Part shown: one piece after another, positions 6,491 through 43,949 of the stretch
Layout: every line of letters begins with the position of its first letter
Numbering within the stretch: position 1 is the stretch's first letter
Source: a virus
Strand: one strand, 5' to 3'
UHGV virus genome: UHGV-1541059
Length of the DNA stretch: 47,311 bases
Notes under the pieces: model-generated
The model's input: the letters and a program-made list of their open reading frames with translations, nothing else
What the model was told of the DNA's origin: nothing
Databases searched by the model: none
Translations under genes and position numbers: made by a program

Positions 6491-6651
6491 AACGTTAATT
6501 CCTCCGGTTTACAGAATGTATATTTATTTTCCGTAAAACGCGCTACAACGCAAAAACCCACCGCGTAACCCACTTGTAAGGGTGCAGTGTCTTTTTTGCG
6601 CCAGAAGCGCAATCAGGTGGCTAATTTTCGATTTTTAAAGTAGAAGGGTAG

Positions 6652-8339: not shown

Positions 8340-8417
8340 TTAAGGTAAGTGCCTTTTTGTGCCTTCCGTTATCTTTTTCCTTGCGTCTTTGCAAGTATGG
8401 CCTTACCTTGTCTGCAA

Positions 8418-8430
8418 GTTTACAAAATGG
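8418..8430 (+). promoter_or_regulatory. Copy of recurrent motif GTTTACAAAATGG in the divergent cI / leftward-operon control region
   Basis: Exact 13-mer; candidate promoter hexamers on both strands nearby. Confidence 0.4.
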
Positions 8431-8503
8431 AATTTTAAGATCAAGGCTTAAAATACACGTTTTGTGACTTGCATCAAACTTTTTGAGGTTATAGGGTAGC
8501 GAC

Positions 8504-9151
8504 ATGAAAACAAAATGGTATGACTTAGCAAAGCAGCTCATGCGGGCGCAGGGCATGAGTCAGGATTCACTCGCAGATCTCATGGGGATAACTAAAGGCG
8601 GCCTGTCACACTGGCTTAACGGTCGCCGCGAGCCAAATCTTGAAGATATTGCGCGGATTATGCGGGCGCTTGGGCGTCGTCAGTTCACTGTTACACATGA
8701 TGGTATGGTCATTGATGATTCTGTTTCTAATACACTTCAGGCCGCACCGCCGCGTGATTTAGGTAGTTACCCGGTTATTGACTGGAAGGACACAGTAAAC
8801 AATATGGATGACACAAGGCGATCAGCATTACCACACGTTACGACTAGCGTTATTTGTTCAGATGATAGTTACTGGCTGGTTGCCAAAGGTGAATCAATGA
8901 ACGCGCCGCAGGGGTTAAGCATCCCGGCGGGGACGATGATACTTGTTGACCCGCACGCGCCAGCTATTGACGGCAAACTGGTTATAGCCCAGCTTGAGGA
9001 AGGGCAGATACCGACGTTTAAACAGTTGATTATTGATGGAGGTCAAAGGCTTTTACGTTCGCTCAATCCTCTGTATCCGCCAATCCCTATGAATCCAGAA
9101 TCAAAAATTATAGGCGTGGTGGTTGATGCGAAGATCGTAAACCTGCCATAA
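8504..9151 (+). CDS. cI: CI-like repressor (HTH plus S24 LexA-type autopeptidase domain)
   Basis: N-terminal HTH (MSQDSLADLMGITKGGLSHWLNG), C-terminal S24 motifs (GESM ... DGKLVIAQL ... FKQL). Confidence 0.85.
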   Translation: MKTKWYDLAKQLMRAQGMSQDSLADLMGITKGGLSHWLNGRREPNLEDIARIMRALGRRQFTVTHDGMVIDDSVSNTLQAAPPRDLGSYPVIDWKDTVNNMDDTRRSALPHVTTSVICSDDSYWLVAKGESMNAPQGLSIPAGTMILVDPHAPAIDGKLVIAQLEEGQIPTFKQLIIDGGQRLLRSLNPLYPPIPMNPESKIIGVVVDAKIVNLP

Positions 9152-9156
9152 ACATT

Positions 9157-9182
9157 AGCCGCCGGATGGCGGCTTTTCTTTG
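9157..9182 (+). terminator. Intrinsic terminator after cI
   Basis: 7-bp GC stem (agccgcc-ggat-ggcggct) followed by TTTTCTTT. Confidence 0.6.
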
Positions 9183-9260: not shown

Positions 9261-9303
9261 GTATACAAAATGGATTGACTCGATGTTTTACGGGGCGTAT
9301 ATT
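9261..9303 (+). promoter_or_regulatory. Strong sigma70 promoter (pL-like) with the 13-bp motif abutting the -35
   Basis: GTATACAAAATGG-a-TTGACT-17 bp-TATATT. Confidence 0.55.
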
Positions 9304-9651: not shown

Positions 9652-9942
9652 ATGAGCGTTACAATTATATATGGTAAATGTGATAGCAAAATGAATGCCA
9701 GGGAACGCAGAAGGATAAAAAGAGAAAACGAAAGAAAATCATCACCTGCAATCAATAAAACAGACAATGTGGATAAAGCTATTCGATTTGCAAACGAGGA
9801 AAGATGCAAACCAAATAGCATTAAAGAACGTCGCAAAGGATCAGTAAAATGGTATACGGAAAATGAAAGCGGCAGCTACTACCACGCAACGCAACCACGA
9901 CATTTAGGGGAAAAACCCCTGGATAAAGTCCGCTATCATTAA
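9652..9942 (+). CDS. N-like transcription antiterminator (P22 gene 24-like, arginine-rich motif)
   Basis: MSVTIIYGK...NARERRRIKRENERK resembles the P22 gp24 N-terminus and ARM; position after pL/nut. Confidence 0.55.
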   Translation: MSVTIIYGKCDSKMNARERRRIKRENERKSSPAINKTDNVDKAIRFANEERCKPNSIKERRKGSVKWYTENESGSYYHATQPRHLGEKPLDKVRYH

Positions 9943-12699: not shown

Positions 12700-13320
12700 A
12701 TGAACGACATCAAAACAGCTTACTCTCTCGGTAATGAAGGCATGTTAATCACTCGCTATACAGATGATGCAAACTTTCACGAAGTGGAAATTAAAGATTA
12801 TCACGAAGTATTGAAAGATATGGAAGCTGGCGCGTATGACGCTGATTTGAATCTGGCGCTACAGGTTGTTGATATTGTGATGGGTGCGTCAATCCGCGAT
12901 TACGTGTCTTTAAGTATGGAAGAAAAAACATCGGTAGCGCGTTATGTATTCTCTCTTACTTTTGTGAAGCGCATGGAGGAAGAATTCGGACGCGTACCAG
13001 TGCCGGAAGAGGTTGATCCGCTCGCGTTCGGAAGTGCTGTTATTCTCCCGTTGAACAAGGATCAGTTTGGTAGTGTTTCACTGCATTCTATGCGCGGCCT
13101 GATGAAAAACATCTTTGAAGTTAAGATGTTGCAGAAATGCATTGAGGAAGGCCACAAAGAAGAAGAAGTAAAAGCGTTTATGCCGCTGTTTTACGGTGAA
13201 ATGGTTGGCAATGATATGCGCGCAAATGATTTCGGTGTGCAGGCGGCTATCGCTGTGCTTAATGATGCACGGAAAAACGCACAGCCGATGCCTGAACAGG
13301 AAAAACGTGTACTGCATTAA
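12700..13320 (+). CDS. Hypothetical protein (206 aa)
   Basis: Largest unknown ORF of the early accessory block. Confidence 0.5.
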   Translation: MNDIKTAYSLGNEGMLITRYTDDANFHEVEIKDYHEVLKDMEAGAYDADLNLALQVVDIVMGASIRDYVSLSMEEKTSVARYVFSLTFVKRMEEEFGRVPVPEEVDPLAFGSAVILPLNKDQFGSVSLHSMRGLMKNIFEVKMLQKCIEEGHKEEEVKAFMPLFYGEMVGNDMRANDFGVQAAIAVLNDARKNAQPMPEQEKRVLH

Positions 13321-16863: not shown

Positions 16864-16944
16864 GTTTACAAAATGGCGTCATTGTGTGATGAATGTCACA
16901 TAATGGCGCTTTGCACCTTGTTAGCACGTATCCATTTTGTATAC
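16864..16944. promoter_or_regulatory. Control region upstream of ninF/ninG: inverted pair of the 13-bp motif flanking a CRP-like palindrome
   Basis: GTTTACAAAATGG (16864-16876), TGTGATGAATGTCACA (16885-16900), reverse-complement motif CCATTTTGTATAC (16932-16944). Confidence 0.4.
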
Positions 16945-37325: not shown

Positions 37326-37348
37326 GGGGCCGTTGGCCCCTTTCTTTT
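37326..37348 (+). terminator. Intrinsic terminator after major tail gene
   Basis: GGGGCC-gtt-GGCCCC followed by TTTCTTTT. Confidence 0.65.
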
Positions 37349-37360
37349 AGGGTGAAAACT

Positions 37361-38038
37361 ATGATTCATGTTCGAACAGGACAATTTGCGGCGGTGGTAG
37401 ACGGCAGGCGGTATGTGTTTAATCCCTGTTTCGCTGCAATGGCTAAGATCGGCAGTGACAGAGAACTGGTCGAATACTTCGCAACCATCCACGGTGGCAA
37501 ATATCCATCACGATTGCCAGCAGATCCAGACCTACGCAATCGCATTCTGGCGCGGTGTTATGGTGAGATAGTGCAAACGTCAATACACATCCTGAAATGT
37601 TGCTCAGAAGACGAAATAGGCCCGTTATTGGGTGAATGTAGGTTTACTCCTTCCGGCAAATTGCGACTAAAACCCGGACTGATGCCGACCAGTGACGTTA
37701 TCACGCTGGCGCAACATTGCATGTACCACGGGTTAATCGGTGACGGGCCAGAAGAAGACGCCGGAGAGATCCGGGAAGGGGAATATAAGCCGACTTTTAA
37801 CGTGCTGGAATTCGTTTATTCTGCCGTAGCTCACCTGGGATTATCTGAATCAGAAGCGTGGAATATGACAATGACCGGATATAGGGCCGCTGTACGCGCT
37901 AAAACGCCGCCAGACGAAAGAAACGAGAGAAGCAAGCCAAACGTTCACATAAATAAACGTGCTTATGACGAGCAAATGGAGGCCGCTAAAAAGGCACTAG
38001 AAAGAATGAAAAATAGCAAGCAAGAAAAAGCCCGGTAG
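37361..38038 (+). CDS. Putative tail assembly chaperone (G/T position)
   Basis: Single 226-aa ORF between major tail and tape measure; no frameshift partner seen. Confidence 0.35.
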   Translation: MIHVRTGQFAAVVDGRRYVFNPCFAAMAKIGSDRELVEYFATIHGGKYPSRLPADPDLRNRILARCYGEIVQTSIHILKCCSEDEIGPLLGECRFTPSGKLRLKPGLMPTSDVITLAQHCMYHGLIGDGPEEDAGEIREGEYKPTFNVLEFVYSAVAHLGLSESEAWNMTMTGYRAAVRAKTPPDERNERSKPNVHINKRAYDEQMEAAKKALERMKNSKQEKAR

Positions 38039-38046
38039 ATCCGGGC
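38030..38046. terminator. Bidirectional hairpin between convergent genes
   Basis: GCCCGG-tagat-CCGGGC; A-run on one side gives a U-run for the minus-strand transcript. Confidence 0.4.
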
Positions 38047-38053
38047 GTTCATC

Positions 38054-38473
38054 TTATTTGATTCTAACAATATCAATAAAACCGTTACCCAAATCTACAA
38101 TTGCGTGATTTTTTGCACCCGCGCCGCCTTCATTAAAAATTCTTTCCGCGAAAGCAACTTTATTTGCCTTACACTCGTTTGCTATCCTGTTTTTTATTTC
38201 GCTATTATTTTCAAAGACTGCGCCTACAGCGGCCTCGTTTACAAGGCCATAATTAAACCAACGAGCATAAACTGGTTTACCTTCAAATTTTTTATCAATT
38301 GCCTTAAAAAGAATTGCTGGCGCGGCAGGTTCTTTTTTGATCATGTCGTGATATGCGGCTACATGGTTTGCCACTTCTTCACAGTTAATGCTTATGGCCT
38401 CGTTAGCGTTCGCGTTAAATGCGAGTGCGGCAATCACAGTAAGTGCCATTTTTGCTAACCGTTTCATAATCAA
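38054..38473 (-). CDS. Secreted protein, reverse-oriented moron in tail module
   Basis: N-terminal signal peptide MKRLAKMALTVIAALAFNANA; two Cys in mature part; opposite strand to flanking tail genes. Confidence 0.6.
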   Translation of the reverse strand: MIMKRLAKMALTVIAALAFNANANEAISINCEEVANHVAAYHDMIKKEPAAPAILFKAIDKKFEGKPVYARWFNYGLVNEAAVGAVFENNSEIKNRIANECKANKVAFAERIFNEGGAGAKNHAIVDLGNGFIDIVRIK

Positions 38474-38535
38474 CTCCTACCGCTTATTCTAATTTGCTAA
38501 ATGCTTCATTTAACTTAGTTATACACGCATATTGT

Positions 38536-38619
38536 TTATTTTTTAAGTGCTTTTAACATTTCTTCGATGAAGTCCGCATAGCGTTCATGTTCATTGGGGC
38601 GGTAGTTTACGTTTTTCAT
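38536..38619 (-). CDS. 27-aa peptide (MKNVNYRPNEHERYADFIEEMLKALKK) upstream of the secreted-protein gene
   Basis: Strong GGAGG RBS 7-8 nt upstream of ATG on minus strand. Confidence 0.35.
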   Translation of the reverse strand: MKNVNYRPNEHERYADFIEEMLKALKK

Positions 38620-38696
38620 TTTCTTATCCTCCTTCTCTCCCCCCCGGTTAATCCGGCCTTTTAAATCCCTTTGCTCTATCCCTTTCCTTTAGCCTC

Positions 38697-38740
38697 TTTA
38701 TACAAAATGGAGTCGTTACAGTAAAGCCATTTTGTATAAA
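38697..38740. promoter_or_regulatory. Perfect inverted repeat of the recurrent motif; candidate divergent promoters for tape measure (+) and the moron (-)
   Basis: TTTATACAAAATGG-16 nt-CCATTTTGTATAAA; on each strand motif, 1 nt, hexamer, 17 nt, TATAAA. Confidence 0.45.
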
Positions 38741-38777
38741 ATAGAGGCATAGATCACATTTTGTATGAGGTTAAATC

Positions 38778-41120
38778 ATGGCTACCAGTGTAGGTACAAT
38801 TTATTACGAAGTTGATGCAAAAACTGGTCAACTTCTCGTTGCACAACGACAGGCAGACCAGGCCTTTGACCGTATAGAGCGCGGCGCAAAACAGGCTGAC
38901 CGCCAGGTAAACACCCTGAAAACATCCATCAAGGCACTGACCAGGGTTATCCATTTGCTAATTGCTGCGGAGGCTGTGCGCCAATTCATGGATATGGCGG
39001 AGCAAGCAAAAATGCTTCGCGTAAAAATCAAAATGCTTACGGGCGATGCGGAGTCCGCCGGACGGGTTTTTGATGGCCTGAAAGCAATATCAAAAGAAAC
39101 AGGCCAAAGCATGAAGGATACCGGGGATCTGTGGCAAGGCTTAGCTATCTCACTGAAGAACACGTCCGCCACTGAAGGGCAATTGCTTAACCTGGTAGGT
39201 ACGATTCAGAAAATGGGGGCGTTGGGCGGCGCGTCAGCGGAGCAGATGTCAAACTCAATGCGTCAATTCCGTCAGTCTATCGACGGTGGCGTGTTGCGTG
39301 CTGAAGAATTCAACAGCCTGTTAGAAAACACCCCGACCATCGTACAGACAATGGCACGCCAGATGGGGTTATCAATGGGCCAATTCCGCGCCGAAATGCT
39401 GGACGGTAAGATCACGGCAGAAAGGATGGTTAACGCAATCCAGGCGGCTACGCAGGAAACAAACGAGAAGTTTGCGCAGTTGCCGCGCACATCCGGCATG
39501 GCCCTGAATGAGCTTAAAGTCGAGGTTATGGGACTTGTTGAGCAATTGGATGATCTTTTCGGTGTATCCGATACGGTTGTTGCTGGTATCGATCTTGTAA
39601 CGAAAGGTGTTAAGGCTTTAGGTGAAGGCGCTGATTTCGCTAAAACCTGCTTTAACACCCTGAAGACGGCTGGTGGCGAATTCATCGACATGTTTGAAGA
39701 TGTCAGAATCAAGGCTGGCGAGGTAGCCGAGAAGATCATCGCAATGGTGACGCCAATCAAGGCACTAATGGATGCCTACAAATGGATGAAGGAGGTCGTA
39801 GGAGAGAAAACCGACGAATATAACAGCAACTACGAGAAGAAATACGGTAAGACTGTTGGCAAGGTCATGCAACTACAGGATGATCTGACCGCAGCAATCC
39901 AGGCTACAGAAGAAGCAAGGAAAAATGAACAGAATGCCGCCAATGACGGAGCGATTACCGGATTCGACAAGCCAGTAGACAAACCGAAAAAACAGAAAAA
40001 AGAGAAGAAATCTGAAGCTGATCGTCTTGGCGATAAAGGTATAAGCGTTTCTGACCAGTACAACAAAGACGCCGCCGCTATGCGCAAAGCGTTAGAGAAC
40101 GGCAAGGCCATTGATGCTGCATTCGCCCAGGGTAAAATCACTCTCCTTGAGTACCGCGCCGCGCAAAAAGGGATAGGTAAGGAACTGAAGGAAGAATTAG
40201 CGCAAATTCCGGTAGATGAATTGCGTGATAAATGGGCGCAAATAGTAAGCCCGATGGATCAGCTTAAAGGCGAGGTTGACCCTATTCAGCAGGCACAAAA
40301 TGAATGGGCCGTTCGTAAGCAAATGCTTATCGACCTGGGAGCTACCGAAGCGCAACAGAAACAGGAATTGTTAGCCTATGAGCAACAGATCCGCGATCTG
40401 AAGTGGGAGCAGTGGCAAGCGCAAAGCGACACTAACGGCCTGATCGGTGATTGCGTTAATGGCCTTAAAGGTGGTATGAGCAATGCACTTGTTGGCCTGT
40501 TAAACGGTACTCAATCATTAAGCGATGTTTTTGCTAACTTAGGTAGCAATATCCTCGGCAATATTGGTAGCAGACTTTCAGATATAGCCGCTGACTGGAT
40601 AGCAGATCAAATCATGATGGAGACACAAAGCAAGGCCACGCAAGCAAGTACAACGGCGGGCGCGGTAGCGGCGCAAGGCCAGATTGCTGCGGCGGCGGCC
40701 CCGGCGGCGGCGGCAACAGCGGCGTCAACTGGCGGCGCATGGGCTGCGGCTGGTTCTGCGGCACTCACTGCGATCATGTCGCTGGCTACGTCAATTTTCG
40801 GCGGTGGTCGCTTTAATGGTGGTAGCGTTATTGGTGGCAATATGTACCGCGTAGGGGAACACAACAGGCCGGAGCTATTCCAGACATCTAACGGAAATCA
40901 ATATATGATCCCAGGCGAGAATGGCAGGGTTATTCCTGGGCGTGATATTGGCGGTGGCGGCGGCATTAGTATGCCTGTCAATATCAACATTCAGACCACA
41001 AACGGATTTAGCGACGAAGACAGTCGCAGACTTGAGCAAACAATGGAACGTGTAGCAATGAAGATGATAACAAGGGAATCACAAAGACCTGGAGGAATAT
41101 TGCAACCGCGCCGCAAATAA
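38778..41120 (+). CDS. Tail tape measure protein
   Basis: 780 aa, coiled-coil rich, Ala/Gly-rich hydrophobic segment near C-terminus; position. Confidence 0.85.
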   Translation: MATSVGTIYYEVDAKTGQLLVAQRQADQAFDRIERGAKQADRQVNTLKTSIKALTRVIHLLIAAEAVRQFMDMAEQAKMLRVKIKMLTGDAESAGRVFDGLKAISKETGQSMKDTGDLWQGLAISLKNTSATEGQLLNLVGTIQKMGALGGASAEQMSNSMRQFRQSIDGGVLRAEEFNSLLENTPTIVQTMARQMGLSMGQFRAEMLDGKITAERMVNAIQAATQETNEKFAQLPRTSGMALNELKVEVMGLVEQLDDLFGVSDTVVAGIDLVTKGVKALGEGADFAKTCFNTLKTAGGEFIDMFEDVRIKAGEVAEKIIAMVTPIKALMDAYKWMKEVVGEKTDEYNSNYEKKYGKTVGKVMQLQDDLTAAIQATEEARKNEQNAANDGAITGFDKPVDKPKKQKKEKKSEADRLGDKGISVSDQYNKDAAAMRKALENGKAIDAAFAQGKITLLEYRAAQKGIGKELKEELAQIPVDELRDKWAQIVSPMDQLKGEVDPIQQAQNEWAVRKQMLIDLGATEAQQKQELLAYEQQIRDLKWEQWQAQSDTNGLIGDCVNGLKGGMSNALVGLLNGTQSLSDVFANLGSNILGNIGSRLSDIAADWIADQIMMETQSKATQASTTAGAVAAQGQIAAAAAPAAAATAASTGGAWAAAGSAALTAIMSLATSIFGGGRFNGGSVIGGNMYRVGEHNRPELFQTSNGNQYMIPGENGRVIPGRDIGGGGGISMPVNINIQTTNGFSDEDSRRLEQTMERVAMKMITRESQRPGGILQPRRK

Positions 41121-41126
41121 ACGAAA

Positions 41127-41156
41127 CCCCGGTACAATGCCGGGGTTATCTTTTAG
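41127..41156. terminator. Bidirectional intrinsic terminator after tape measure gene
   Basis: CCCCGG-tacaatg-CCGGGG followed by TTATCTTTTAGTT; also downstream of minus-strand gene 41153-41329. Confidence 0.6.
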
Positions 41157-41329
41157 TTATTCTCAAAACTTGTATATCCTCTTTCAATTTTCCCGCCTCT
41201 TACACTTCTTGCAAATACTGCATCATTATGTTTGAAAAATGGTTCAGTATATGTGTCTCCTTTACTATCCATCCATTTCACGATCCAGGCTATACGTTTT
41301 ACATTGCTTTTATTTGCCGGGTTTTTCAT
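41153..41329 (-). CDS. Hypothetical 58-aa protein (reverse-oriented cassette gene 3)
   Basis: GGAGGAAAATAAA-ATG on minus strand; MKNPANKSNVKRIAWIVKWMDSKGDTYTEPFF... Confidence 0.4.
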   Translation of the reverse strand: MKNPANKSNVKRIAWIVKWMDSKGDTYTEPFFKHNDAVFARSVRGGKIERGYTSFENN

Positions 41330-41447
41330 TTTATTTTCCTCCGCAAATTACAATCTTCCGTTTCTGGCTATATAGCTGCGAGAAAACATTACCAACCAAA
41401 TATTCCAGATCTCCCTCCAGGTGAATTTATCGTCCTCCATACCCACC

Positions 41448-41702
41448 TCACTTATGGCAACCGCGAACGCCAGACAATTCATTGAATTTATGGTGTTCAA
41501 CAATCACCCACTCTTTCAGATCCTGGCTATAGACTCGCCAGTCTAAATTGGCGCGGAAGGCGTAGCCGTAACCGTCTTTCAATTTTTTGGGTGACGCATT
41601 CTTGTTTAAAAACGCGTTCAAAAGTTCCTTTGCTTTTTTGACTACATGTCCCGGCGCGTTTTTCTGTGCTTTCAGATTTTTGTCAATCGCTACCAGTTTC
41701 AT
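41448..41702 (-). CDS. Hypothetical 84-aa basic protein (reverse-oriented cassette gene 2)
   Basis: GGGGTGAG RBS; ...GYGYAFRANLDWRVYSQDLKEWVIVEHHKFN... Confidence 0.5.
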   Translation of the reverse strand: MKLVAIDKNLKAQKNAPGHVVKKAKELLNAFLNKNASPKKLKDGYGYAFRANLDWRVYSQDLKEWVIVEHHKFNELSGVRGCHK

Positions 41703-41719
41703 AACTCACCCCATCATCC

Positions 41720-41875
41720 TTAGTTAAGTGCCTTCAGGAAGAAGTCCCGGTATTCATCTTCTTTTGCATTCATCATGAATTGACCGTATTTGAATGCGTC
41801 GTCGAAACCCTTAACGATTGCTATTTCCACTTGTTCGAATGCGTTGTTTAGCATTACCACTACATAGCGTTTCAT
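41720..41875 (-). CDS. Hypothetical 51-aa protein (reverse-oriented cassette gene 1)
   Basis: GGAGG RBS then ATG; MKRYVVVMLNNAFEQVEIAIVKGFDDAFKYGQ... Confidence 0.45.
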   Translation of the reverse strand: MKRYVVVMLNNAFEQVEIAIVKGFDDAFKYGQFMMNAKEDEYRDFFLKALN

Positions 41876-42600: not shown

Positions 42601-42628
42601 CCCCGCGCGAAGCGGGGTTATTATTATT
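42601..42628. terminator. Intrinsic terminator (bidirectional) between the M operon and the reverse cassette
   Basis: CCCCGCG-cgaa-GCGGGG followed by TTATTATTATT. Confidence 0.6.
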
Positions 42629-42740
42629 CCATTTCCATTAATGCTATATTTTCCGCTATCGTTTTCCAGTCCAGATTTACAGCATGAACACCAAATACTA
42701 TCAATCCCATTGCGATTAGTGCTAAAACTTCGATTTTCAT
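42624..42740 (-). CDS. 38-aa membrane peptide (MKIEVLALIAMGLIVFGVHAVNLDWKTIAENIALMEME)
   Basis: GAGG RBS on minus strand; hydrophobic helix; last gene of reverse cassette. Confidence 0.35.
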   Translation of the reverse strand: MKIEVLALIAMGLIVFGVHAVNLDWKTIAENIALMEME

Positions 42741-42831
42741 AATCAACCTCACTTAATTAAGAAAGGCATAAACGATGGCAATCGCGCCAGCCACTACCAA
42801 AACATTTCGATCACTTCGTCTACTTTATTGA

Positions 42832-43035
42832 TTAAGGTAACTCCACTTCGTTAAATGTAACAAGCACCCCTTGATTTTCTTTATTTATAATTATGAAGGC
42901 ATTAATTGAAGGCAGACATCTTTCCACGCGGTAAACGTCACCAATATCTAAACTGTAATATTCTGTTAATTCTCTATTGTTCCCTTTAGCAAAACCCGTA
43001 AACCTAACCATTTTTTGACCGTCGTACTTTAACAT
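42832..43035 (-). CDS. Hypothetical 67-aa protein (reverse cassette)
   Basis: Minus-strand ORF coupled to upstream gene. Confidence 0.45.
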   Translation of the reverse strand: MLKYDGQKMVRFTGFAKGNNRELTEYYSLDIGDVYRVERCLPSINAFIIINKENQGVLVTFNEVELP

Positions 43036-43043
43036 ATACAGTC

Positions 43044-43292
43044 CTATAGGTTATCACGCAGATAATTAACGCCTTTGTCAGTGACGAATGAGTGATTAAC
43101 CTGGTTTTCATCCGTCATGATGATGAATAACTTTTCCTGTAGGTATTTCGCTTTTGGGTACAGCGTTAAACAGACCTGGTACAGTATCCCGCGCTCAATC
43201 AGCAAATCAATAAATTCGTGCTCATGATAACCGACGAGGCGGGCGGCTTGTTTCAACGTGTACACATAATCGCCGTGATTGCGCCGCCCCAT
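43044..43292 (-). CDS. Hypothetical 82-aa protein, possible HTH (reverse cassette)
   Basis: YTLKQAARLVGYHEHEFIDLLIERGIL resembles a DNA-binding helix-turn-helix. Confidence 0.45.
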   Translation of the reverse strand: MGRRNHGDYVYTLKQAARLVGYHEHEFIDLLIERGILYQVCLTLYPKAKYLQEKLFIIMTDENQVNHSFVTDKGVNYLRDNL

Positions 43293-43301
43293 GTTGCCGC
43301 C

Positions 43302-43652
43302 TTATTTATCGAATGCGCCCAGGTTATCTATGCAGAAGTCTTTCGCAGCTTTTTCGTATTCGCGTTTTGCTTGCGGATCGTCTGCCGGGAAACCTTTTGC
43401 GTGTATTTCACCAGGGCAAGACTGATCCATAGAGTCTGCAAATTCAACATTGACGTTAAAGTTAATATCTTTCGGGTTCATCTCTTCCACCTTATCCGGC
43501 ACTTGCACCGGAGTAATATCAAAATCACGAGCGTTAGACCAACAGCGAAGTAACTCACGACCTTCATCACGCGCTGCGACGTATGTGTCGAACAGGCCCA
43601 TGCGCTCCCATTCACATTTATCAGTCCATATTTCTAAACTATATTTTTGCAT
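43302..43652 (-). CDS. Hypothetical 116-aa acidic protein (reverse cassette)
   Basis: Minus-strand ORF; no recognisable motif. Confidence 0.5.
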   Translation of the reverse strand: MQKYSLEIWTDKCEWERMGLFDTYVAARDEGRELLRCWSNARDFDITPVQVPDKVEEMNPKDINFNVNVEFADSMDQSCPGEIHAKGFPADDPQAKREYEKAAKDFCIDNLGAFDK

Positions 43653-43664
43653 TTTGTTAAACCA

Positions 43665-43820
43665 TCATTTGACAGGTTCGAGTCTGTATCCCAAAACTCT
43701 TTCGTCTTCAGCGAGTAAGAGCGCGTCAGTAAGTGCATCGCCTTCATCTTTATACAGGGCAACAGTCATTTCCCTGCCGTCTGTCAGAAATACCTTCAAC
43801 CTCCACACCTTATCAGCCAT
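43665..43820 (-). CDS. Hypothetical 51-aa protein, first gene of reverse cassette
   Basis: GGAGGTGTGAG-ATG on minus strand; motif copy GTTAACAAAATGG immediately upstream (43835-43847); track ORF extends to 43895. Confidence 0.45.
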   Translation of the reverse strand: MADKVWRLKVFLTDGREMTVALYKDEGDALTDALLLAEDERVLGYRLEPVK

Positions 43821-43949
43821 CTCACACCTCCGCGCCATTTTGTTAACTGTGCTTCCGTTTGAGTAAAATATACATATTGTATAAACCGTGATCAATCCAT
43901 TATGGTATGATTTAGCGTGACGCAGATCACAAAATCAGAAGGTGAGAAA

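Follow-up and report, generated by a model that had tools for sequence, protein, structure and literature searches.

A backwards, exchangeable moron cassette with a predicted periplasmic product beside the tape-measure gene of mEpimmI-group coliphages

Introduction

Morons were defined by Juhala et al. (2000), as summarised in PMC3594210, with bor and lom of phage lambda as the classical examples. The first named moron, gene 15 of phage HK97, is flanked by the genes for the tail chaperone and the tape measure; its product gp15 is a YebO-like inner-membrane superinfection exclusion protein (PMC3594210). Here we describe a cassette in the same slot, at positions 38,054 to 38,740 of the viral genome UHGV-1541059 (47,311 nucleotides, referred to below as the window). 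It is oriented backwards relative to the tail operon and consists of a cargo gene encoding a protein with a Sec signal peptide, a small upstream gene for a 27-residue peptide, and a perfect inverted repeat. A moron in the chaperone/tape-measure slot is a well-known kind of element. What is undescribed here is the protein family, the conserved mini-gene, the exchange boundary at the signal peptide, and a phage-wide site to which the repeat belongs, none of them categorically new.

HK97 gene 15 forms an autonomous unit that has a promoter and a terminator of its own and a small envelope-targeted product (PMC3594210); the cassette resembles it in its small, predicted envelope-targeted product, its terminator hairpin, and a predicted promoter. 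It differs in that gp15 is a YebO-related inner-membrane protein, whereas the cargo described here has a cleavable Sec signal and is predicted to be soluble in the periplasm, with no homologue found outside the mEpimmI group. Unlike gene 15, the cassette is reversed and has a conserved small upstream gene as well as operator-like sites over its promoter. With bor and lom it shares the character of extra DNA relative to sister genomes, the deviating G+C content, the envelope product, and its own promoter and terminator, the promoter here being a predicted one. Those genes are expressed from the repressed prophage, whereas the promoter of the cassette shares a site with the early promoters, which makes its expression in a lysogen uncertain.

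The mEpimmI phages are a new group, published in 2025, of Nus-dependent, non-lambdoid temperate coliphages with one common repressor, and in a collection isolated from human faecal samples their prevalence is reported to have been about that of lambdoid phages (PMC11893012). Their virion proteins were mapped by mass spectrometry, and their Cor/Llp-type lipoproteins Lpp021 and Lpp010 exclude homologous phages experimentally (PMC11893012). These two lipoproteins are exported envelope proteins of the same phage group, yet they are encoded in another island and have no sequence relation to the cargo described here. The paper on the group makes no mention of gp63 (the cargo counterpart in phage mEp021), of the small open reading frame (ORF), or of the repeat (PMC11893012), and no description of operators and accessory genes of mEpimmI phages was found in the searchable literature.

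For the site itself, the closest described system is that of the stoperators of mycobacteriophage L5 and Cluster A. These are short, largely asymmetric sites, about a dozen per genome, most of which fall in small gaps between genes and one of which is at an early promoter (PMC9283540). To that extent the candidate site described here is alike, being short, largely asymmetric, present about 12 times, mostly intergenic, and found at an early promoter. The stoperators differ in being bound by a monomeric repressor and in being oriented with transcription. The candidate site follows no orientation rule and has dyad forms, and the resident repressor is a CI-type protein with helix-turn-helix and S24 domains.

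Taking the observations together, we give a probability of roughly 0.45 to the reading that the locus is a swappable moron cassette whose Sec-exported cargo has a role in envelope-level exclusion or protection and whose repeat arms are tied to a DNA-binding protein of the phage.

Results

The Locus as a Leftward Accessory Cassette

A 2-kb query taken at the locus was 95.7% identical to Escherichia phage MagusPhagus and 80.8–84.8% identical to the phages mEp010, mEp021, mEp044, mEp554, mEp515, and mEp013. Judged from this similarity, the window is a temperate E. coli phage of the mEpimmI group. The cassette occupies the same place in the isolated phages MagusPhagus, mEp021, and mEp010, and the arrangement was found in 33 of 5,426 complete E. 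coli genomes, six of which carry the cargo over most of its length. On its left lies the gene of a DUF6246 protein, which takes the tail assembly chaperone (TAC) position and has only weak matches to TAC families. On its right lies the tape-measure gene, which starts at ATG 38778 behind a ribosome-binding site (RBS), GAGG, at 38767–38770. The counterpart of the cargo gene in mEp021 is mEp021_63 (gp63), labelled 'hypothetical protein', with a terminator annotated beside it. Several genes near gp63 carry the label 'virion structural protein' in the mEp021 record and gp63 does not; from these labels and the virion mapping of the group, we count gp63 as not structural.

The base composition of the locus deviates from its surroundings: the G+C content is 37–41% over 37950–38850 and 48–52% in both flanks, with reversed skews. 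Read on the minus strand, the G+C-rich terminator hairpin leads into TTTTTCTT; on the plus strand it leads into a poor T-run, GTTCATCTTA. Because the T-run is good on the minus strand and poor on the plus strand, the hairpin should stop the leftward unit yet let late rightward transcription pass. Terminators are annotated at the equivalent place in mEp021 and mEp010. At the other end of the cassette, the -10 hexamer of the predicted leftward promoter sits within the left arm of the repeat, and the relatives have TTCACT-17-TATAAA at this point. The first-pass annotation, made from the sequence of the window, had described a reverse-oriented moron between the tail chaperone and the tape measure. 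This description holds for the gap next to the chaperone-position gene (DUF6246), as indicated by the low G+C content, the predicted promoter, the terminator hairpin, and the content that is swapped in collinear relatives. We conclude that the locus is a leftward accessory cassette, that is, a moron, in a recombination hot spot of the mEpimmI phages, the DUF6246/tape-measure gap.

The chance that the ORFs are not real genes, or that the region stems from misassembly or from capture of a host gene, is negligible. Two antisense ORFs on the plus strand (38105–38458 and 38587–38664), which we take as spurious, overlap the region, and the existing annotations disagree on the small ORF. Against this stand the arrangement shared by three isolated phages and 33 complete E. 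coli genomes, 65 alignment columns of the cargo (both cysteines among them) that are invariant over 15 sequences, a confident structure model, and the coding substitution pattern of the small ORF, while no homologue was found outside this prophage context. For practical purposes, the comparative data refute this explanation, and the assembly error or captured core host gene allowed for at the outset is not what the identical position in MagusPhagus, mEp021, and mEp010 indicates. Neither a further 24-residue ORF at 38676–38750 on the minus strand nor the plus-strand ORFs are conserved as ORFs in the relatives.

Unrelated Cargos behind a Common Export Platform

Across approximately 46 related loci, the slot was found to hold four unrelated, interchangeable cargo types. 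A scan of the IMG/VR database for the repeat gave 43 loci, 38 of which could be oriented and were typed. Cargo A, the family of this window, was present in 9 of the 38; cargo B, another secreted family of 116–119 residues, in 6; cargo C, a 35-residue transmembrane peptide together with a 100-residue protein with two transmembrane segments, in 7; and cargo D, a VasI/TagO lipoprotein (PF11319, 58 bits) with either a second lipoprotein or a 106-residue protein, in 13. The remaining 3 of the 38 had too little upstream sequence for a call, and combinations of cargos were also seen. The same exchange is visible outside this collection: the slot of mEp515 contains an unrelated secreted protein of 119 residues, that of mEp044 the transmembrane pair of 35 and 100 residues, and that of many E. 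coli prophages a VasI/TagO-family lipoprotein with a second lipoprotein. The first cargo gene always encodes a signal peptide, a lipobox, or transmembrane helices; the 106-residue second protein of some D cassettes has none of these.

The signal peptides of cargos A, B, and D start with MKRLAK, and some of those of A and B are nearly identical. When the DNA of A-type and B-type cassettes was compared, the identity was 80–100% through the promoter, the untranslated region, the small ORF, and the signal peptide, and it dropped to approximately 50% or lower directly after the cleavage site. Because the similarity ends there, we place the exchange boundary at the end of the signal peptide. The alignment of cargos A and B by hhalign covered residues 1–43 only, and homology of the two cargos was rejected: just the signal peptide and the first helix align, and the model of B is all-helical without the C-terminal hairpin of A. 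Family B is equally orphan. On this sequence evidence, the promoter, the untranslated region, the small gene, and the signal peptide are a conserved platform for expression and export, behind which the mature part of the protein is exchanged. Such an exchange at the signal-peptide boundary could explain how phages try new envelope effectors, and the locus is notable mainly for the different envelope proteins that occur in one slot behind a common promoter, mini-gene, and signal peptide.

The metagenome contig L056 represents a distant relative (DUF6246 protein 43% identical). Its slot holds two forward genes of 122 and 198 codons, and no copy of the motif was present in the 20 kb examined. As this relative has neither, both the motif and the reversed cassette may be confined to the mEpimmI group.

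The Cargo Protein

The program-made ORF at 38054–38473 on the minus strand has 139 codons and a TTG start. All homologues begin with MKRL, and TAGGAG stands 6 nt before ATG 38467; the gene is therefore read as 38054–38467 with 137 codons. The secreted protein that had been annotated is thus present, two residues shorter than first proposed. Its signal peptide was read from charge, hydropathy, and the AXA motif. The n-region has a charge of +3 (K2, R3, and K6), the h-region comprises 11 residues with the core MALTVIAALAF (the top Kyte–Doolittle window of 11 residues, 7–17, scores 2.5), and the predicted cleavage falls after residue 21, between A-N-A and N, at a classical signal peptidase I site. 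A set of 15 homologues keeps the positive n-region, the hydrophobic core, and the small residues at -3 and -1, in agreement with the canonical Sec signal peptide claimed for the protein. We infer that the cargo is exported by Sec and cleaved after ANA. The two cysteines noted earlier, C29 and C99, are likewise present and invariant in the 15 homologues, whose identity goes down to 69%, and they probably form a disulfide in the periplasm. The predicted mature protein has 116 residues and a pI of 7.0, and the signal peptide is the sole hydrophobic segment of the precursor. The family falls into two A subtypes with approximately 70% identity to each other.

Of note, the cleavage region NANA, within the signal-peptide c-region (38405–38422, minus strand), is specified by a 6-nt repeat, AACGCN, the copy number of which varies among the homologues (NANA, NANANA, and NANANANA). 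This looks like in-frame slippage within the signal peptide.

The AlphaFold2 model of the cargo is confident (pLDDT, the predicted local distance difference test, 84.6; pTM, the predicted template modelling score, 0.82) and shows the signal helix, five helices, and a C-terminal beta-hairpin. Of the structure prediction and fold comparison suggested as a check, the first half thus gave a usable model and the second gave no significant fold match among PDB structures. A sequence-profile search of the PDB returned chance matches only (E of 0.5 or worse), and no Pfam, PHROG, NCBIfam, or PADLOC family matched the 137-residue protein above noise. A word-indexed search of 5.8 billion proteins yielded 17 clusters, and every named source among them was E. 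coli or one of its phages. The searches gave no homologue beyond the mEpimmI prophage context, and by them the cargo is an orphan family of this phage group.

An exhaustive hidden Markov model search of 1.8 billion representatives added only eukaryotic EF-hand repeat proteins. The E-value of 1e-18 sums up to 14 weak repeats, a single repeat reached an hhalign probability of 7%, and the loop DKKFEGKPVYAR lacks calcium ligands: of positions 1, 3, 5, and 12, which are acidic in the 12-residue EF-hand loop, position 3 is K and position 12 is R. Because of the low single-repeat probability and the missing ligands, the EF-hand assignment was rejected. The YebO/HK97 gp15 family was also rejected: there was no Pfam-A, PHROG, or NCBIfam match at thresholds, and the signal peptide is the only hydrophobic segment. 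The lysozyme inhibitors Ivy, MliC/PliC, and PliG have a beta-rich fold. The suggestion in the first-pass annotation that the protein is lysozyme-inhibitor-like finds no support, since the Pfam scan gave no such match at E up to 1, helices dominate the predicted fold, and no such structures occurred among the PDB matches. As a new predicted-periplasmic family in the slot of HK97 gene 15, the cargo is a direct candidate for exclusion at the tape-measure or envelope stage.

The Small Upstream Gene

The small ORF of 27 codons with its perfect GGAGG RBS was found as annotated. It is present in 32 of 46 related loci in 23 distinct DNA versions. Among these versions, the variable columns are distributed over the three codon positions as 11/5/18, and the codon differences summed over pairs amount to 1372 synonymous and 819 non-synonymous ones. 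The C-terminal half of the peptide, YADFIEEMLKALK, is kept through many synonymous changes, and because the peptide is held constant in this way, we regard the small ORF as a real coding gene. The small peptide had no Pfam, PHROG, NCBIfam, or PADLOC match above noise, and a tblastn search against phages found it in the mEpimmI group only. Public records place a plus-strand ORF (38587–38664) over the small gene (MagusPhagus CDS0038, mEp010_98, mEp044_93, and mEp515_85), and the mEp021 record leaves the small gene unannotated; the codon-position pattern favours the minus-strand reading.

The small ORF had also been proposed as a regulatory leader peptide, a cis-acting element whose translation controls the expression of the cargo. 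The ORF indeed lies directly upstream on the same predicted transcript with a strong RBS, and cassettes of the mEp021 type have only 13 nt between its stop codon and the cargo ATG, which makes translational coupling possible. In the window, by contrast, the spacer is 68 nt long and the cargo has an independent TAGGAG. A scan found no terminator or anti-terminator structure between the two ORFs, the small ORF contains no runs of regulatory codons, and its C-terminal amino acids are conserved. The peptide precedes the unrelated cargos A, B, C, and some D, and it is missing from 10 TagO-type IMG/VR cassettes and from the MS 21-1 prophage, which otherwise look functional. Given that the ORF is missing in some cassettes and that no terminator precedes the cargo, a classical leader role does not fit, and we consider control in cis by this ORF very unlikely.

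The 5' untranslated region contains a short hairpin, CCGG-TTAAT-CCGG, at 38644–38656. An Rfam search of this region and of the repeat gave only matches far below the gathering scores. Four of the loci (L009, L016, L041, and L051) have an insertion of approximately 93 nt in the untranslated region, which encodes a very basic ORF of 30–32 residues ending in NRRKQKRIRK; the stop codon of this ORF overlaps the start of the small ORF.

The Inverted Repeat and the Phage-Wide Site

The arms of the repeat are complementary at 14 of 14 positions with 16 nt between them. Among perfect inverted repeats of at least 12 bp whose arms are no more than 40 nt apart, it is the only one in the window (mean of 0.08 in 100 shuffles), and the 14-bp motif pair of the first-pass annotation is thereby confirmed. 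The accompanying claim that the pair forms the tape-measure promoter stands in part: the predicted rightward promoter overlaps the right arm, but the arms are not private to this promoter, being copies of a phage-wide site. The spacer and the -35 hexamer of the rightward promoter vary among relatives. Prophages retrieved by their DUF6246 gene alone retain both arms intact, including those with a different tape-measure gene. A third copy at 38757–38766 is real in the window and decays in the relatives.

The site T[AT]TACAAAATGG occurs 12 times in the window at up to one mismatch against 0.5 times in shuffles; 11 of the 12 copies are intergenic, and MagusPhagus as well as mEp021, which is more divergent, have them at the same positions. 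The coordinates are given in Table 1. An extended form, AAGTWTACAAAATGGAWT, is the only element of at least 12 nt common to the regions assigned to the early promoters PL and PR. Downstream of the assigned PL there is a boxA-like sequence, where nutL has been placed (PMC11893012). A weight-matrix scan added dyad-symmetric forms: TTTACAGAATGTATA at 6508, AATACAAAATGTAAA at 9941, and TATACAATATGTATA at 43872. A divergent relative, L058 (logan:SRR23253275_1304; DUF6246 protein 59% identical), has the same island architecture, and several of its divergent regions use a shifted, more symmetric variant, TATAC-AAAAC-GTATA, so that the site covaries within one genome across islands. The motif string gave only unrelated primers in the searchable literature, and an IMG/VR scan with the dyad variant TATACAAAACGTATA was too unspecific to be informative.

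Table 1. Coordinates of the cassette, its flanks, and copies of the phage-wide site in the window.
Feature	Position	Strand	Basis or remark
DUF6246 protein (PF19759, phrog_791), left flank	37352..38038	+	tail assembly chaperone position
Terminator hairpin GCCCGGTAGATCCGGGC	38030..38046	.	two-strand terminator scan; overlaps the DUF6246 stop codon
Cargo gene, 137-residue precursor, homologous to mEp021 gp63	38054..38467	-	homologue starts and RBS
Signal-peptide coding segment MKRLAKMALTVIAALAFNANA	38405..38467	-	part of the expression platform common to unrelated mature domains
Cargo RBS TAGGAG, 6 nt 5' of ATG 38467	38474..38479	-	sequence; upstream context ggtaggagttgattATG
Small gene, 27-residue hydrophilic peptide MKNVNYRPNEHERYADFIEEMLKALKK, first gene of the leftward unit	38536..38619	-	coding substitution pattern
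Small-gene RBS GGAGG, 8 nt 5' of ATG	38628..38632	-	sequence
5' untranslated region, purine-rich	38633..38696	-	conserved across four phages
Predicted leftward sigma-70 promoter, TTTACT (38725-38720)-17-TATAAA (38702-38697)	38697..38725	-	consensus-level reading
Left repeat arm TTTATACAAAATGG, one copy of the site	38697..38710	+	repeat scan
Right repeat arm CCATTTTGTATAAA, second copy of the site, overlaps -10 of the rightward promoter	38727..38740	-	repeat scan
Predicted rightward sigma-70-like promoter GTTACA-16-TAAAAT, 5' of the tape-measure gene	38715..38742	+	promoter scan
Tape-measure protein, 780 residues, right flank	38778..41120	+	ORF list and annotations of relatives
Other copies of the site	5371, 6508, 8419, 9262, 9941, 16865, 16932(-), 22539, 41947(-), 42016, 43835(-), 43872(-)		
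Site 8419 over -10 of leftward promoter TTGATC-16-TAAACT	8417-8444		beside the repressor gene, assigned PL
Site 9262 just upstream of -35 of near-consensus rightward promoter TTGACT-17-TATATT	9275-9303		before the N-like gene, assigned PR
Site pair flanking a hairpin	16865 and 16932		just before a nutR2-like boxA
Second 16-nt-spaced palindrome	22539		
Sites at the promoter end of each reverse-strand tail-operon island	38699/38727, 41947/42016, 43835		

The site has the appearance of a 15-bp pseudo-dyad operator (TWTAC-N5-G(T/G)nWn) that a dimeric DNA-binding protein of the phage would recognise, and the most plausible candidate for the binder, as far as the sequence goes, is the CI-type immunity repressor or a Cro-like early protein. 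Because the arms copy the site at the early promoters and at the islands, the cassette and the tape-measure promoter are probably wired to a regulator of the phage. The site would be a candidate operator for the shared immunity of the mEpimmI phages, and it would also explain the restart and the silencing of tail genes downstream of backwards islands. Going one step further, we hold it possible, though doubtful, that the site defines a regulon of these phages, in which each reverse island and the tail restart promoter following it are gated by the same 15-bp operator as PL and PR, the island described here being an export platform recombined at the signal-peptide boundary. If so, the immunity switch would directly time a set of swappable envelope proteins.

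An alternative explanation would be that the inverted repeat consists of two back-to-back sigma-70 promoters and that the motif is their common -10 region (CCATTTTG-TAWACT), with no dedicated regulator. The reversed copies mostly end in TAWACT or TATAAA, acceptable -35 hexamers lie 16–17 nt upstream of several (8419, 16932, and 38699), and the promoter scan did find the rightward promoter. Against this, at 9262 the site lies just upstream of the -35 and is wrongly oriented for a -10, and the copies at 43835 and 42016 abut RBSs. Eight invariant bases 5' of the -10 hexamer are not a feature of sigma-70 promoters, dyad forms of the type TATAC-N5-GTATA exist, and the divergent relative has the shifted variant (AAAAC-GT) at several islands at once. 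On balance, a pair of promoters with no regulator of its own has some plausibility but is not what we expect. The forward motif was also considered as a -35 hexamer and was rejected, with no -10 at the right distance in most copies.

Proposed Role of the Cassette

In the envelope-exclusion reading that we prefer, transcription would start at the leftward promoter, whose -10 lies in an operator-like site, and would run through the 5' untranslated region, the gene for a cytoplasmic peptide of 27–29 residues, and the cargo gene to the hairpin terminator, which would be shared with the upstream tail gene DUF6246. The cargo would be exported by Sec, cleaved after residue 21, and fitted with a disulfide in the periplasm, where the mature protein would exclude superinfecting phages or protect the envelope. 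The cassette and the facing tape-measure promoter would be controlled by the dimeric DNA-binding protein of the phage at the repeat arms. By analogy, the cargo most likely acts in the envelope, in superinfection exclusion or protection; we propose this because HK97 gp15, from the same slot, and the Lpp lipoproteins, from another island, act in this way.

Several points weigh against this reading. The assignment of function would rest on position and analogy, and the cargo resembles no known exclusion, immunity, or defence protein in sequence or fold (Pfam, PHROG, PADLOC, and PDB folds). The PHROG matches of the alternative cargos are families of unknown function, and one of these cargos is a member of a family associated with type VI secretion, a hint in another direction. 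The scan of the 2-kb region found 3 promoter-like matches against 3.2 expected in shuffles. The commonest GG form of the site is only half symmetric, most copies having one non-consensus half. Finally, if the arms are repressor operators over both -10 hexamers, lysogens would keep the cassette switched off, in contrast to HK97 gp15.

In a different explanation, the cargo is a factor for host fitness or lysogenic conversion, such as a periplasmic protector against envelope toxins (type VI effectors, colicins, or lysozyme) or a host-interaction protein, made constitutively from the prophage and unrelated to phage exclusion. A periplasmic protein in an autonomous unit of low G+C content would suit such a role, a frequent alternative cargo is the VasI/TagO type VI secretion-associated lipoprotein, and the families are narrow and fast-diverging, as the two A subtypes illustrate. 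Nevertheless, the cargo shows no similarity to Ivy, MliC, PliC, or type VI or colicin immunity families or folds, the early-promoter site in the cassette promoter argues against simple constitutive expression, and the sole tested envelope cargo of the mEpimmI group excludes phages. A host-fitness function of this kind therefore appears unlikely.

The position of the arms bears on the timing of expression. If they are repressor operators, the cassette and tape-measure promoters would be shut in lysogens and open after infection or induction, and a cassette shut in lysogens would suggest an early exclusion function rather than a lysogenic-conversion gene. The same repression could mean that the cassette serves the lytic cycle, in lysis timing, in protection of the progeny from receptor-bearing debris, or in conditioning of the periplasm, with no benefit to the lysogen. 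Both predicted -10 hexamers of the locus lie inside operator-like arms, the same site overlaps the -10 of the assigned PL, and mEp021 has an island with a 'putative antirepressor', which should not run free in a lysogen. The cargo is dispensable, however, being replaced in sister phages, and so it is not a core lytic function; we consider a lytic role unlikely as well. The early-expressed exclusion proteins Llp of T5 and Imm and Sp of T4 would fit a lytic-cycle role and the preferred envelope-exclusion role alike. Should none of these explanations hold, what remains is an ordinary moron of unknown function.

Other Islands and Features of the Window

Two further backwards islands of small genes lie in the tail operon of the window on the minus strand, at approximately 41153–41875 and 42624–43822, each with low G+C content and reversed skew. 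A fourth island, beyond the end of the window, corresponds to 12727–13137 of MagusPhagus. The mEp021 island with the 'putative antirepressor' also encodes a zinc-ribbon protein. In the fourth island, MagusPhagus has a gene labelled 'lipoprotein' on the opposite strand between J and the tail-fibre genes, and we take it as the Lpp counterpart. Upstream of the cassette, the gap separating the major tail gene from the DUF6246 gene contains a strong hairpin, GGGGCCGTTGGCCCC (37326–37340), with a T-run behind it. The hairpin resembles an attenuator within the late operon and is an annotated terminator in mEp phages.

Between the motif copies 16865 and 16932, a perfect CRP core, TGTGA-N6-TCACA, is present at 16885–16900 within a longer imperfect hairpin. 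A boxA-like sequence, TGCTCTTTAAAAA, lies just downstream at approximately 16955, and the terminator TERM_4 of mEp021 is annotated at the equivalent place.

The gene of the CI-like repressor (8504–9151, plus strand) has a -10-like sequence, TATAGG, that ends approximately 9 nt before the ATG, and no obvious RBS is seen at 8489–8506. The proximity of TATAGG to the ATG and the missing RBS suggest a leaderless transcript like that of lambda cI from PRM. The would-be -35 position of this gene is overlapped by a degenerate copy of the motif in inverted orientation (8456–8474). The PR-proximal site at 9262–9273, when read leftward, gives CCATTTTGTATACT, with a good -10 and a poor -35, directed back towards the hairpin at 9158–9180, the repressor terminator; such a promoter could drive a short antisense or oop-like RNA.

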